DNA from: Planctomycetota bacterium
Lineage (GTDB): Bacteria > Planctomycetota > UBA1135 > UBA2386
Assembly: GCA_965223545.1 (NCBI GenBank)
Contig: OZ245006.1
Span: forward strand, 6,368,001 to 6,432,000
Length of the DNA stretch: 64,000 nt
Direction: 5' to 3'
The position numbers and the translations under genes were made by a program. A model generated the notes under the pieces. The model made no database searches. It saw only the letters and a program-made list of their open reading frames with translations, and had not been told where the DNA came from. Positions 5,113 through 58,082 of the stretch are shown piece after piece; the stretch's first letter is position 1; every line of letters begins with the position of its first letter.

Positions 5113-5200
5113 CTCAGCGCGGCCACGGCCGCAACCAAACTCGGATGCCGGTCTTGCCGGCGCGGTCTGGAAGGCCCGACACATCCGCCGCCGCGCTGAG
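5113..5200. repeat. Palindromic REP-like element (module A), empty copy of the IS110 target
   Basis: Terminal IR CTCAGCGCGGC (5113-5123)/GCCGCGCTGAG (5190-5200), inner CGGATG/CATCCG; closely similar to 54186-54208 joined to 56149-56213; lies between convergent genes. Confidence 0.88.
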
Positions 5201-52779: not shown

Positions 52780-53985
52780 ATGCACATTCTCGTCTTGACC
52801 CCGCAGCCGGTCGACCGACTGGACCACGGCGGCCGCATCCGCACCCGGATGCTCCTCGACGCCGCGTTGACGATCGGGCGCGTGACGGTGGCCGCGCCGC
52901 GGCCCGAGGTCGACGAGGCGGGAGTCCGGGAACGCATGCGCGCGATGGGCGTGCAGGTCGAGTGGCTGCCAGCGGGGGCCGGCGTCTCGTCGTGGTCGGC
53001 CAAGGTGCGCTGCTGGGCGAGGGGTCGCAGCCAAGTGATGACGCGGCGCTGGGGCGCGGGCGCCCCGCAGGCGGTGTCCGCCTTGCTGGCTCGGGGGGTC
53101 GACCTGCTGGTCGCCGATGCGAGTCACGCGCTGCCGGCGTTGCCGGAGTCCTTGCCGGTGCCGTTGGTCGTCCAGTTCCACAACATCGAGTCGGCGGTGC
53201 TATCGCGGCGGGAAAGCGTGCGCCGCGGCCCCGCCGAGCTCTTCGTGCGCAGGATCGAAGCCCGTTGCACGCGCGCGTTGGAGAGGCGGTGGGCCGCGCG
53301 CGCGGCGGTCTGCGTGCCGGTTTCCGAGCTCGATGGGAGGCGGTTGCGGGAGGTGGAGTCGCGGGCGGTGGTCGAAGTCGTGCCCAACGCGGTCGCGGTC
53401 GAGACCCTGCCGCTGTTGCCGCCGCCGCCGCGCGGTGCGCCGCGGTTGCTGTTCGTCGGCAGCTTCGATTACCCACCCAATCGCCAGGCCGCTCTCGAGC
53501 TACTGCGCGAGCACCTGCCCGTTCTCGCCGCGTCGCATCCGGACCTCGAGGTCTGCCTCGTCGGCGAGGACCCATTCGGCGAGATCGCCGCGCACGCGTC
53601 GGCCGCCGGCGCGACCGCCACGGGCAGGGTCGATGACCTCGAGCCGTACTACCGCGCGGCCACCGCGGTCTACTTGCCGATCCGGTCGGGCGGTGGGACG
53701 CGGATCAAAGTGCTCGAGGCGATGGCCCACGGTCGGCCGGTGCTGTCGACGGCGGTGGGGGTCGAGGGCTTGGACTTGGCGCCGGACCGTCACTACTTGC
53801 GTTTCGAGCGCCCCGCCGAGGGGGTCGCGGCGGTCGACGCGCTGCTGCGCGACGGCGTCGCCGACATGGTCGAGCGCTGCCGTCAGCTGGTCTGTCGCGA
53901 CTTCGACCAGAGGGTCGTGGTCCCGCGGCTCGCCACCATTCTGCGCCGTGCCGTAGAGGGCGGCGTGCACCAGCGGGAGCGGTGA
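52780..53985 (+). CDS. Glycosyltransferase family 4
   Basis: FHNIES, VPNAV, FVGSFDYPPN, GGTRIKVLEAMA.G.PV..T..G.EG. Confidence 0.9.
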   Translation: MHILVLTPQPVDRLDHGGRIRTRMLLDAALTIGRVTVAAPRPEVDEAGVRERMRAMGVQVEWLPAGAGVSSWSAKVRCWARGRSQVMTRRWGAGAPQAVSALLARGVDLLVADASHALPALPESLPVPLVVQFHNIESAVLSRRESVRRGPAELFVRRIEARCTRALERRWAARAAVCVPVSELDGRRLREVESRAVVEVVPNAVAVETLPLLPPPPRGAPRLLFVGSFDYPPNRQAALELLREHLPVLAASHPDLEVCLVGEDPFGEIAAHASAAGATATGRVDDLEPYYRAATAVYLPIRSGGGTRIKVLEAMAHGRPVLSTAVGVEGLDLAPDRHYLRFERPAEGVAAVDALLRDGVADMVERCRQLVCRDFDQRVVVPRLATILRRAVEGGVHQRER

Positions 53986-54208
53986 CTCAGCGCGGCCGAG
54001 GCCGCAACCAACTCGGAGCATTCCGCGACCCGAGCGTCGGTCGCGGGTCCCGCGGTCGCCGGCGGCCGCCCTGAGCCCAGAGGCCAGTGTTGTCTTCGAG
54101 CCTCCGGGAGCTGCGTTGTCGAAGTTCCAGCGACATCGAGCCTTCCGAAAGGTTGTCGCCGCGCGAAGATTTGCGGACCCTGAGGCTCAGCGCGGCCGAG
54201 GCCGCAAC
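53986..54208. repeat. Composite REP/BIME-like array: module A (53986-54075), module B (54098-54188), left part of a second module A (54186-54208)
   Basis: CTCAGCGCGGCCGAGGCCGCAAC occurs at 53986 and 54186; arms CTCAG.GCGGC/GCCGC.CTGAG and GAGCCTC/GAGGCTC. Confidence 0.85.
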
Positions 54209-54239
54209 GGTATGTGTGGTTCCATGATCTGCGAAGCTA

Positions 54240-54530
54240 GAGTTCTCCACACCCGTCGCGCCGTAGCGGTGTGGAAGACTCGCGCGATGGTGCAGCCGCA
54301 GGAGTCGTGTCGGGAGTCTGGTCATCGGCCGCAAGAGAGCTTAGGGTCCCCCGGCGTGCGACGGAGAGGTTTCGCGATCTGCCGCAATGGTGGCGCTTCG
54401 AGCGGCCCCTCATTTGGTTCTGCGACTCTCCTCCCGCGTGGGGGACCCGATTTAGGAGATTGGCGGCGTGAGAAATCACGGCCCCGAAACACGAACCGTT
54501 TTGGCGACTCGCCTCCTCAGGCGGACTGCG
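54240..54530 (+). ncRNA. Predicted bridge RNA
   Basis: Stems 54246-53/54268-75, 54292-304/54513-29, 54344-52/54440-48, 54363-75/54421-31; loops carry target matches (GCCGCAA 54381-87, TTTGGTT 54413-19) and donor matches (TTAGGAGAT 54452-60, ACCGT 54495-99); transcript ends unknown. Confidence 0.8.
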
Positions 54531-54582
54531 CGGGTAGGGAGAGTCCTCTCGTCGACACTCACTCGTTGAACATGGAGGGGAC

Positions 54583-56085
54583 ATGAATCGATTCGTTGGA
54601 TTGGATCTCGGCTTGAGGAGCAAGCACCGAGCCGTCGTTCTGGATGGTGCGAAGTCTCGGGGCAGACCGTTTTCAGTCGAGAACAGCCGTGAGGGTATTG
54701 ACCTTCTGCTGCGCCGTGCACAGGAAGGTGCCGAGGGTCCGGTGAGCTTCGTGATGGAACCAACGGGGTTGGCGTGGCTGCCCATCGCGGCGCACGTGAA
54801 CGCCGCAGGGTTCCAGATCTACGTGAGCAAACCACAGAAGCTGAGCGACCTGCGGAAGTTCTATAGCAAGCACACCAAAACCGACGTAGTAGACGCCGAG
54901 GCCGCTGCGCGTCTGCCGCAGATGGATCCAAAGGGCGTCCACCAGCTGCGTGTTCCAACTGCCGACGAGACGACGATCCGTCGACTCGTGAAGCGGCGTG
55001 AGCGGTTGGCGCGCGAGCTCAGCGACCACAAGCGTCGTGTGCACGCGATACTGGTACTGGCGAATCCCAGCCTCATGAAGGCCTTGGGGGCAGAGAAGTT
55101 CAGTGCCGCTAAGATGGGGTTTCTGCGGCGCTACGTCGATCCGGTGAAAGCGGTCGGCCTTGGGAAGAGTCGCTTGGAGCGCTTCTTGACGAAGCGATCC
55201 AAGGGAACGCATGACCCGTGCTTGGTCGACCGCGTGCTCGAGTCCTGCCGACAGGCCGCCGAGTACTACGCTGAGCTGCGAGCTGCGGGGCAGATGCCGT
55301 TCGACTACGAGGCCATCCAAGAGGATGTGGTGTACGAGCTGGATGAGATCGAGCGCAAGAACACGGACGTTCGCAAGCTCGACGCAAAGATCAAGAAGCT
55401 CTACCTGGGCGTCGATCCTGACCGAACACTCGAGCAACTGCGCGGCGTCGGTCCCACGATCGCTGCGGCCATCGAAGCCTTGGTAGGCGACATCGCGCGG
55501 TTCTCGAACGGCAAGAAGTTCGTGAGCTACTGCGGACTGTGTCCACGCCGGAAGCAGACGGGCATGAGCGACCCCTCGATGCCAATCACCAAAACCGGCC
55601 AACGAGTACTCAAGAAGTACCTCTACCTAGCAGCTGACGTCGCTCGCCAGTGGGATCCGGATTTCGCGGCGTACTACGCTCGCCGCTACGCCGCAGGTGA
55701 TCACCACAACCTCATCCTCATCGCATTGGCTGGCAAGATGGCGCGCCGCGTCTACGCCCTCCTGAAGCGTCGCGACAGCCAGCGCGCCGATGACAAGCCG
55801 GCGTCGACGCAAGTCCGCTACGTCCTGCGAGACGCCGACGGCAACGAGCTCACGAAGGTTGCCGCGCGCGCGCTCATCGCAGCCAAGTTCACGCGCAGCA
55901 TCGTCGCGCCACAGCGGCATGAGCGCGACCAACGGCGACAGGGACGAGTGGGGACTCCGACGACGAGGGACTTGAGTGGCCGCCCAATGGACGCCACAGG
56001 CCTGGCCGTGGAATCCCCACGTCAACCTCACCCGATCGGTGATCTCATGCAAGAACACTTCCCTGGTCTTGTGGAAGAGTCCTGA
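54583..56085 (+). CDS. IS110-family DEDD recombinase/transposase (500 aa)
   Basis: GGAGG RBS; D8 (VGLDLG), E59 (MEPTG), D101/D104 (KTDVVDA); GVGP..A......GD..RF......SYCGLCP....TG. Confidence 0.96.
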   Translation: MNRFVGLDLGLRSKHRAVVLDGAKSRGRPFSVENSREGIDLLLRRAQEGAEGPVSFVMEPTGLAWLPIAAHVNAAGFQIYVSKPQKLSDLRKFYSKHTKTDVVDAEAAARLPQMDPKGVHQLRVPTADETTIRRLVKRRERLARELSDHKRRVHAILVLANPSLMKALGAEKFSAAKMGFLRRYVDPVKAVGLGKSRLERFLTKRSKGTHDPCLVDRVLESCRQAAEYYAELRAAGQMPFDYEAIQEDVVYELDEIERKNTDVRKLDAKIKKLYLGVDPDRTLEQLRGVGPTIAAAIEALVGDIARFSNGKKFVSYCGLCPRRKQTGMSDPSMPITKTGQRVLKKYLYLAADVARQWDPDFAAYYARRYAAGDHHNLILIALAGKMARRVYALLKRRDSQRADDKPASTQVRYVLRDADGNELTKVAARALIAAKFTRSIVAPQRHERDQRRQGRVGTPTTRDLSGRPMDATGLAVESPRQPHPIGDLMQEHFPGLVEES

Positions 56086-56127
56086 ACAAGCCGTGCACAC
56101 GCGATGTCGAGCCCCAGCGAAAACCCC

Positions 56128-56133
56128 TTGACA
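56128..56133 (+). promoter_or_regulatory. Outward-facing -35 box at IS right end (half of circle-junction promoter)
   Basis: TTGACA 15 nt from the end; end-joining places TATGTG (54211-54216) 17 nt downstream. Confidence 0.65.
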
Positions 56134-56148
56134 TGACTTAGGAGATAT

Positions 56149-56323
56149 CAAACACGGATGCCGCTCTTGCCGGAGCGGCTTGGAAGGTCCGACCCATCCG
56201 CCGCCGCGCTGAGCCCGGAGGCACTGTCTCTCGGAGCCTCCGGCGCGGCGGCGACGTTGCCATGTCGGCGGCGTCGCCTCGAGAATGTTGTCGAAGCTCG
56301 ACGGTTCGAGGCGCCGGAGGCTC
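56149..56323. repeat. Right part of interrupted module A (56149-56213) plus module B (56234-56323)
   Basis: Continues the 5136-5200 sequence with few mismatches; 13-bp arms GAGCCTCCGGCGC/GCGCCGGAGGCTC. Confidence 0.87.
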
Positions 56324-56447
56324 ACTCAGCCTTCGGTTGGTCGGCGCACCTGACGCAGCGCGTACCAGCAGACCAGGTAGACGGCGCCGAGCGGCCGCCC
56401 GATGCGCCGCGCGATCCAGCGGACGTAGCGTTCGAGCGGCAATCGCC

Positions 56448-58082
56448 TCACGCCGATTCCTCCGCCGCGGCGCGGCACAACGCGGCGACGGCCTCGCGGT
56501 CGTCGGGGGCGCCGACCGCGCAGCGGAGTCGCGGTCGCAGCGCCGCGATCGTCTTGGCCTCGCGCTCGCGCGCGCAGAGCACGCCGCCGAGCCGCGCCGT
56601 CAGGCCTCGCCAGAAGTGCAGCTCGCGCATGTTTTCCAGACTCGCCTCGGGCTCATCGAGCGCCGGCAAGACCAACAGGCAGCTCTCGTCGATCAGCGGT
56701 CGGGGCGCGCAGGCCAACGCCCACGGGTCGCGGAAAACGACCGCGTCGTAGTCGGTCTCGCGAAGGGCGTCCCGCACGCGTTCGGTGGCGAGGACGTCCC
56801 CGGTCGCGCCCCAGTAGCGGCGTGGAACGAGGCCGAACACGTCTTGCGTCGGCGGCTCCGCCCTGCTGGTCAGCGGGATGGTGTGTTCGATCCAGACCGT
56901 ATCGTCGGGGGCCGGCGTCGGCTCCGGCTCGTCGCAGCCGACGGACAGGATGCGCAGTGGTTGCCGCAGCCGTGGATCGATCGTTCGGCGGTGACGGCTG
57001 ACGTGGTTGGCGACCCGCAACACCTCGCGGTCGCTGCGGGCGTGGTGGATCCGGCTGCGCGTGCGCGCCCACCACGCGCGCGGCAGGCGGGGCAGCGTCG
57101 CCAGCAGCGCCGCGGCTTGGTCCCGCGCGGACAGCTGGGCGCGGTCCTTGAGCAGGTTCCACGGCAGCAGCAGCGCGCGCCGCAGCACCATGTCGGGCGC
57201 GGTGACACTGCGCCAGAAGAGGAGCTCGCGGTTGCGGCGGTCCAGCCGTCGCACGCGCTGGCGTCCCAGCACGGAGACCGTGGTGCCTTGAAAGCCGTGA
57301 TGGGCGATGGCGCCGGGTTCGTACAGCACGCGCCATCCGCGTCGCCATGCTTGGTAGGACAGGCTCATGTCCTCGACGTAGCACGGGTGGTACAGATCCT
57401 CGAAGCCACCGAGCGCCAGATATTTCGCCCGGTCGAACGCGCTGCTGCCGCCGCCGGCCCACATCGCCGGCACCAGGTCCGTCGCCTGGTGCTGCACCTG
57501 GACTTGGTGGATCGCGCCGGCGCGAAACTCCGCGCGGGTCAGACCGGTCTCGAAGCGCGTGCCGTCCATCTCGATGCGGGCGGTTACCGCGAACACGTCG
57601 TTGGCACCGAACCGGGCGAGCAACCGCCGCAGGAAGTCCCGTTCGACGCGCATGTCGTTGTTGACGAACACGAGGATGTCTCGGGTCGCCGCCTCGACGC
57701 CGGCGCGGTTGCCGCGGATGAAGTAGCGGTTGGTGTCGAGCTCGACGAGCCGCACACCTTCGTGCGCGCGCACGACGTCGCAGGACTCGTCCTCGCTGCC
57801 GTTGTCGACCACGATGATCTCGTGGTCCCCCGGCGTCGCATCCACCGCCTCCTGCAGCGGTGGCAGGATGGCCCGCAGGTAGGCGGCGCGGTTGTAGTTG
57901 AGGACGATCACCGACGCGTTGTGCGCCGGGGGCTCCGGCGCGGGGCGCTGCCGCGCGCGCAGCATTCCGACGACCGGCGTCGCGATGAGATCGAGGACCA
58001 GGGTGACTGCGGCGACGGCCCAGCCGTAGAGCGCGACCGGCGGAATCAGCACCAGTCCCAGTGCTGCCCGCACGCGCTTCAA
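56448..58082 (-). CDS. Glycosyltransferase family 2 with C-terminal extension
   Basis: SVIVLNYN, VVDNGSED, GNRAG, FVNND, YVEDMSL; start about 58082 (TTG) or 58073 (GTG). Confidence 0.87.
   Translation of the reverse strand: MKRVRAALGLVLIPPVALYGWAVAAVTLVLDLIATPVVGMLRARQRPAPEPPAHNASVIVLNYNRAAYLRAILPPLQEAVDATPGDHEIIVVDNGSEDESCDVVRAHEGVRLVELDTNRYFIRGNRAGVEAATRDILVFVNNDMRVERDFLRRLLARFGANDVFAVTARIEMDGTRFETGLTRAEFRAGAIHQVQVQHQATDLVPAMWAGGGSSAFDRAKYLALGGFEDLYHPCYVEDMSLSYQAWRRGWRVLYEPGAIAHHGFQGTTVSVLGRQRVRRLDRRNRELLFWRSVTAPDMVLRRALLLPWNLLKDRAQLSARDQAAALLATLPRLPRAWWARTRSRIHHARSDREVLRVANHVSRHRRTIDPRLRQPLRILSVGCDEPEPTPAPDDTVWIEHTIPLTSRAEPPTQDVFGLVPRRYWGATGDVLATERVRDALRETDYDAVVFRDPWALACAPRPLIDESCLLVLPALDEPEASLENMRELHFWRGLTARLGGVLCAREREAKTIAALRPRLRCAVGAPDDREAVAALCRAAAEESA

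Follow-up and report, generated by a model that had tools for sequence, protein, structure and literature searches.

A probable two-loop bridge RNA in the left end of an IS110-group insertion sequence from a Planctomycetota bacterium

The insertion sequence IS621 is reported to encode its guide RNA in a long left end that precedes the gene of a DEDD/Tnp recombinase (PMC11208160, PMC11208158), and this RNA is built from two pseudo-symmetric internal loops with handshake dinucleotides after the right guides (PMC11208158). The layout rules given for this bridge RNA place segments in the sense of the top strand on the 5′ sides of the loops and complementary segments on the 3′ sides (PMC11208160), and the target of IS621 is a REP-type repeat. 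The locus described here is like IS621 in each of these points. In the available part of the same work (PMC11208160) bridge RNAs are predicted in 85.7% of the IS110-group elements of ISfinder and in thousands of orthologues, so that a further ortholog with a specificity of its own is expected. ISPpu10 of Pseudomonas putida (10.64898/2026.03.19.712850) is described, in the accessible portion of its report, as using a promoter at the element junction, as tolerating wobble pairs at the guide interfaces and as targeting REP sequences with a GC-rich stem-loop 5′ of the target. The cores of IS621 and, as reported there, of ISPpu10 are both CT, unlike the A-N cores, unequal at the two junctions, that are found here. 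The IS1111-group seekRNA/bridge RNA shares the recombinase family and the guide principle, and according to the accessible accounts it is placed in the long right end of the element, unlike here.

The region at 54340-54540 of the window (the whole stretch of DNA analyzed, 64,000 nucleotides) is read here, with a probability of about 0.9, as the gene for a bridge RNA with two loops that belongs to an active insertion sequence of the IS110 group. All features described below lie on the + strand. The element is of the known IS110 bridge-RNA kind, real, readable and active in recent times, and introduces no new principle; the principle published in 2024 is unchanged by its features. The first-pass annotation had assigned to this region the LTG/RTG plus LDG/RDG layout, and this assignment is supported: the target loop comes first and the donor loop second, and in each of them the 5′ side has the sense of the top strand and the 3′ side is its complement. 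Its view of the element as an RNA-programmable recombinase ortholog with its own specificity is likewise favored by the covariation of guides with flanks, by the consensus structure and by the Pfam and NCBIfam matches. The sequence anatomy, the 11 identical insertions and the covariation of helices and of guides with the flanking DNA are established here; that the RNA is expressed and the element active is suggested by the sequence, and transcription, protein binding and strand chemistry would be as in IS621 by analogy. In the proposed mechanism the RNA would be transcribed at the joined ends of the element, with a −35 hexamer supplied by the right end and a −10 hexamer by the left end, and would fold into two modules, one binding the target (54363-54431) and the other the donor (~54433-54534). 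The 500-amino acid DEDD/Tnp recombinase, bound to both loops, would then exchange strands directly after the core, and by this exchange the element would enter a REP-like repeat with AAC on its left and CAAA on its right.

The insertion sequence spans 1,940 bp (54209-56148), and the bridge-RNA region is its left non-coding end. The genome (8.1 Mb) contains 11 copies with 0 differences over the 1,940 bp, and in four DNA runs from one study the element assembles as a single contig (54201-56152/56155) at ~10x the depth of its single-copy neighbors. Contigs of the same four runs also show empty target sites, and no joined-ends form of the element was seen among them. Among the sequencing runs listed as containing the sequence there is no RNA run. 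The long left end of 374 nt (54209-54582), compared with a 177-nt RNA in IS621, and the short right end of 63 nt (56086-56148) assign the element to the IS110 group. The left flank of every copy ends ...GCCGCAAC and holds the left target followed by the target-derived core AC (54200-54208, core at 54207-08), and the right flank of every copy starts with CAAA, the right target (56149-56152). The right end of the element closes with the left donor TTAGGAGAT and the donor-derived core AT (56138-56148, core at 56147-48). An Rfam 15 scan of 53500-57000 with E values up to 1 returned no relevant family and only a chance snoRNA match inside the open reading frame.

An empty target site, GGCCGCAACCAAA, lies at 5127-5139 within a REP-like repeat, and it bears out the target of GGCCGCA-AC-CAAA that had been proposed for this place, with GGCCGCA as the left target, AC as the core and CAAA as the right target. 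The uninterrupted 12-mer GCCGCAACCAAA has 95 unoccupied occurrences in the genome. A GCGGCC-nn-GGCCGC hairpin inside the REP-like repeat overlaps the left target in 90 of these 95 empty sites, comparable with the stem-loop 5′ of the target reported for ISPpu10; judged by eye, one or more of the 11 occupied sites are without it. The heptamer AACCAAA has four matches in the window compared with 0.94 expected, two of them being the empty site and the loop segment described below. At one site of the genome the sequence is GCCGCAATCAAA, and either a footprint or a point mutation could explain it. A near-target lacking one A (GGCCGCAACCAAC) is located at 54000-54012, 200 bp upstream of the occupied site and in another unit of the same repeat family, and elsewhere in the genome these repeats form arrays with a period of ~195 bp.

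The target-binding module (54363-54431) consists of the stems GGAGAG/CTCTCC (54363-68/54426-31) and TCGC/GCGA (54372-75/54422-25), which are consensus helices 1 and 2, an internal loop and the hairpin at 54389-54409. Every motif string listed in the first-pass annotation is found where it had been placed, and both loop hairpins and the GGAGAG/CTCTCC stem recur in a single-sequence fold of 54330-54520. The 5′ side of the target loop reads GATC, TGCCGCAA and T before entering the hairpin, and the 3′ side returns through TCA, TTTG, GT, TC and T. The octamer GCCGCAAT (54381-54388), taken earlier as one guide in the sense of the left target, is correctly positioned, but its final T belongs to the linker; T54388 is T in 23 of 24 aligned sequences whatever the target, so the guide match is the 7 nt GCCGCAA (54381-54387), as seen in the motif match, the alignment and the covariation with the flank. 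This T corresponds in position to the U59 linker that follows the left target guide of IS621. On the 3′ side TTTGGTT (54413-54419) is the exact reverse complement of AACCAAA, as had been noted, and resolves into the right target guide TTTG, complementary to CAAA, and the core guide GT, complementary to AC (together 54413-54418), an assignment based on the match and on covariation. The handshake position TC (54419-20) follows directly after the right target guide. Upstream of the module a 5′ stem-loop (TCCACACC/GGTGTGGA) is recognized from sequence and fold at 54246-54275, and relatives have a CACAG...CTGTGG hairpin at this place (by eye, not counted).

The donor-binding module is enclosed by an outer stem formed by CCCGCG (54433-54438) and CGCGGG (54529-54534), which is helix 3 of the hand-curated consensus structure and helix 4 of the structure on the model-aligned sequences described below. 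Its 5′ side reads CGAT, TTAGGAGAT and T before the hairpin at 54462-54485, and its 3′ side ends with ACC, GT, TT, T and GG. The hairpin, CGTGA-GAAA-TCACG with GG/CC extensions, is consensus helix 5 and is built like that of the target loop, both following a common design of GG, a bulge, GG, a stem of 4-5 bp and a bulged G on the returning strand. The left donor guide TTAGGAGAT (54452-54460) is identical to the right-end bases 56138-56146, as claimed earlier; the core AT adjoins this match and is not included in it, and since the last base of TTAGGAGAT is the one just ahead of the core, the core is not read by this guide. The nonamer occurs twice in the window (54452 and 56138) compared with 0.00 occurrences expected from 100 shuffles, and 22 of its 24 genome-wide occurrences (8.1 Mb) fall within the 11 element copies. 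The right donor guide ACC, complementary to the first left-end bases GGT, and the adjoining core guide GT form ACCGT (54495-54499), which complements ACGGT across the left junction (54207-54211) as originally described and is placed by this match and by covariation. The element thus matches its own donor at 9/9 positions of the left guide and, across the left junction, at 5/5 positions of the right guide. A right donor guide that is longer and discontiguous, with CAC added upstream of ACC, fits the element itself and part of the clade but was rejected, since it fails in the three relatives L037, L046 and L048.

A further helix pairs the 5′ strand GGGTCCCCC (54344-54352) with GGGGGACCC (54440-54448) and encloses the target loop. 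This helix had been described in the first-pass annotation as a closing stem, and it is real and present in the single-sequence fold, but it competes with a second conserved helix, the stem of the donor loop. The middle strand at 54433-54448 pairs either with the 5′ strand 54344-54352, closing the target module, or with the 3′ strand 54529-54534, closing the donor module. Both partners covary with the middle strand, and the duplexes are stronger than those of shuffled sequences in 40 of 47 rows for the 5′ partner and in 37 of 47 rows for the 3′ partner. In the element itself the 5′ partner gives the stronger duplex (−28.8 compared with −18.9 kcal/mol), and the donor-loop outer stem has only 6 bp, with a duplex energy that is not distinguished from shuffles (16/100). 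A middle strand with two alternative partners may act as a conformational switch or be part of a pseudoknot. This 5′ strand, which competes for the strand of the donor stem, is a difference from IS621. The abundant RNA containing only the target loop that is reported for CazIS110-1, in the accessible part of that preprint (10.1101/2025.10.25.684509), recalls the strong 5′ helix that could close the target module alone here.

The search for relatives of the element gave 8 loci from species-representative genomes, the best with 42% identity, 80 loci from metagenomes, the best with 51-56%, and 103 proteins, the best with 73%; among 200 other genomes of the same order there are no close relatives, the best match having an E value of 3.5e-31. 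Alignment A1 comprises the upstream region of the element and 23 distinct upstream regions of relatives, after three spurious motif hits inside open reading frames (L068, L079 and L114), five exact duplicates (L038, L043, L055, L062 and L115) and one locus without the region (L044) had been left out. In the hand-curated consensus structure of these 24 sequences 93.5% of the cells are paired and 19 of 36 pairs have changed on both sides; none of 500 shuffles is as good, and the slid controls give 34-52%. A covariance model derived from this structure and searched in 89 sources gives 62 matches, all on the recombinase strand, and those with listed coordinates are located just upstream of the open reading frame, some next to proteins that are only 27-35% identical. 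The 54 distinct sequences aligned by the model, an alignment fitted to that model, have 92.8% paired cells and 31 of 36 compensatory pairs, with 0/500 shuffles as good. All four guide segments fall in unpaired consensus columns and none is buried in a stem. The helices contain frequent G-U pairs, for example 11 GC and 11 GU at one pair, and so fit an RNA of the + strand. The folding energy does not differ significantly from that of shuffled sequences in this DNA of 70% G+C (z = −1.82 for 54330-54520 and −0.84 for 54222-54560), so the weight of the structural argument rests on the comparative data. RNAalifold proposed pairing of the GGAGG of the target stem with a distal CCTCC; the local partner, paired in 87% of the cells, is preferred.

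The boundaries of the related elements were set from the conserved start GGTAT[AG] and the conserved end TTAGGAGA..A., and the covariation between loops and flanks that had been suggested as a check on the guides is present, with 0/20,000 permutations reaching the observed value for either target guide; the rows are related and not independent, so these permutation counts overstate the significance. The longest run shared by the left guide and the left flank averages 6.05 bases in cognate compared with 3.36 in non-cognate combinations (20 rows), and in 5 of the 20 rows the run common with the flank is only 3-5 nt long. For the right guide (5 nt) and the right flank the cognate value is 4.27/5 compared with 1.92 for non-cognate combinations (15 rows). 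The complement of the right guide and the right flank are both TCCAG in L039, TACCC in L046, GTGGG in L045 and GGCCG in L047, and L037 and L039 share nearly the same scaffold with different guides, each matching its own different flank. At least seven different specificities are present among the relatives. The left target guide reaches the core only in the subgroup of the element itself and stops before it in most relatives, by inspection of the alignment, so that the left guides here mostly end before the core, unlike in IS621. Both donor guides are nearly invariant in the clade, and covariation of the donor loop is for this reason limited to the core and handshake positions.

The core dinucleotide is read alike by the right target guide and the right donor guide in all 24 sequences, the types being AC, AG, AT and CG, and the second base of the core at the left junction equals that of the core read by the guides in 21 of 21 cases. 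In 16 of 19 rows the target-loop handshake dinucleotide complements donor positions 6-7, the last two ahead of the core, and three types covary, in agreement with the handshake guides of IS621 (PMC11208158); the exceptions are the element itself (TC at 54419-54420 compared with AT in the donor), L037, and L039 with half a match. An alternative register with the core AA and a donor ending in TTAGGAG would give a perfect handshake, but it contradicts the observed junctions and the register in relatives. At the junctions the cores are unequal, with AC on the left (54207-08) and AT on the right (56147-48) in 11/11 copies, so the core is not a repeat, and the GT of the right guides pairs fully with AC and with AT only through a G-T wobble. 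In an arrangement of the IS621 type each of the four guides would include the core in its pairing, and target and donor would have the same core; this arrangement is not found.

These unequal cores bear on how the strands are transferred. A true bridge-RNA element could pass on its top strand alone by a copy-out, paste-in route, in place of a two-strand exchange through a Holliday junction, and the cores at the two junctions then need not match. Ligation of the top strand alone would leave the left target and target core joined to the left end, and the right end and donor core joined to the right target. The unequal cores of all 11 copies and of 14 of 18 rows of relatives have this form, and across the relatives the left core always follows the target and the guides, and at the right junction AT predominates independently of what the guides read. 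Excision or insertion of the top strand only is reported for IS621 and CazIS110-1 in the accessible parts of two preprints (10.64898/2026.08.31.748434, 10.1101/2025.10.25.684509), and the copy-out and top-strand insertion described for CazIS110-1 would, by analogy, leave unequal cores such as those seen here. The same pattern would, however, be given by biased mismatch repair after a two-strand exchange or by a blunt cut through both strands at one position, and the cores are equal in four rows of relatives. Transfer of the top strand only is accordingly a serious contender whose chances we place a little under even. The bridge-RNA reading of the locus is common to both routes.

The recombinase is encoded directly downstream, at 54583-56085, as a protein of 500 amino acids with a DEDD domain at residues 5-162 and a Tnp domain at residues 281-366, identified by Pfam, NCBIfam and PDB matches. 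The Pfam matches are PF01548 (DEDD_Tnp_IS110; 1.9e-24, 86.7 bits, cutoff 29) and PF02371 (Transposase_20; 4e-21, 75.6 bits, cutoff 21.3), and the NCBIfam model NF033542, "IS110 family RNA-guided transposase", scores 208.7 bits against a cutoff of 140. The best match among solved structures is the ISCro4 transposase (PDB code 9t56; 9.2e-17), compared by sequence only, to which both domains align, followed by IS621 with an E value of only 2e-13. The protein is considerably longer than ISCro4 (341 residues) and the 328-residue PDB chain of IS621; both lack the ~100 residues inserted between the domains (window 55069-55365) and the ~100-residue C-terminal tail (55771-56085), which are common to the clade and have no Pfam match. 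The DEDD residues Asp-8, Glu-59, Asp-101 and Asp-104 are invariant or at least 90% conserved in 24 clade members, and Glu-59, Asp-101 and Asp-104 align with Glu-60, Asp-102 and Asp-105 of IS621 (the numbering of the PDB chain is offset by 2). At the position of the catalytic Ser-241 of IS621 a threonine, Thr-326 (codon 55558-55560), is present in place of the serine, and this column is evenly divided in the 24 clade members (12 Thr, 12 Ser). Threonine also bears a hydroxyl group, and together with the 11 identical copies, which argue that the enzyme works, this marks Thr-326 as a variant and not a loss. A 14-residue peptide of the recombinase was not found in six of the seven supplementary files of Durrant et al. 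(12 million characters, first 400 characters per cell).

These features can be drawn together in a joint reading, which is offered tentatively and is rather unlikely to be correct as a whole. No shared core would be needed, only the top strand would be passed on, and the donor would keep its AT indefinitely. The right guides would be tuned to the core of the target so that pairing improves after the exchange and drives insertion, the threonine would serve as the nucleophile, and the shared strand that closes either module would decide which form of the RNA is presented.

Transcription of the bridge RNA probably starts from a promoter that comes into being only on joining of the element ends, as judged from the hexamers at the two ends and their conservation in relatives. 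The right end contains the −35 hexamer TTGACA (56128-56133), 15 nt before the last base of the element, and the left end contains, from its third base, the −10-like hexamer TATGTG (54211-54216), which lacks the final T and is preceded by TG only when the ends are joined. With TTGACA 15 nt from the end and TATGTG starting at the third left-end base, joining produces a 17-nt spacer and a TG before the second hexamer. No consensus promoter was found inside the left end of the integrated copy. A TATGNN or TATANN sequence is present at the −10-like place in all 15 distinct elements, including this one, for which the left end was found (L052 is without it), and TTG is present at the −35 place in 16 of 16 distinct elements, extended to TTGAC in 14. 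This putative promoter agrees with the junction promoters reported for ISPpu10 and for IS621, in which the promoter is split across the joined ends.

The putative promoter is also among the evidence that bears on whether the guide segments act as RNA. Complementarity alone cannot separate RNA from DNA, and the segments could in principle work as single-stranded DNA in the manner of the subterminal guide sequences of IS200/IS605; this is very improbable given the conserved putative promoter at the joined ends, the frequent G-U pairs in helices of the + strand only, and a recombinase that belongs to the IS110 family, whose dependence on RNA has been shown (PMC11208160). It is scarcely credible that the structured left end is a mere leader controlling expression of the recombinase, with the likeness of the loops to the target and the ends due to protein-binding subterminal sites or to chance, since its position directly upstream of the open reading frame, its GGAG-rich segments and alternative pairings that could gate translation are set against loop segments that vary with the flanking DNA while relatives keep the scaffold, two loops reading the same core in 24/24 sequences, and a tracking of insertion sites for which a leader has no reason.

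On the guide-RNA reading the locus is a natural bridge-recombinase system of a high-G+C genome in which every part is specified: the recombinase, the RNA, the donor ends and the 12-bp target, with 95 sites still empty and 11 fresh insertions. In its ~20 metagenomic relatives the target loop has been reprogrammed naturally while the scaffold stayed constant. There is a current dispute over the movement of IS110 elements, by cutting out or by copying out, and over the transfer of both strands or of the top strand only; the unequal cores at the junctions bear on it and allow it to be tested from genome sequences alone. Enzyme engineering could start from the exchange of serine for threonine and from the larger size of the protein. 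In a limited search of the literature neither this clade nor unequal natural cores nor a nucleophilic threonine was found described.

One subgroup of relatives (L021, L048 and L051-L061) has the element inserted between a TAnnnT-like hexamer and the ATG or GTG that opens a host open reading frame, a setting that resembles the promoters of leaderless genes. In this subgroup the right end of the element places an AGGAG six bases ahead of the host start codon.
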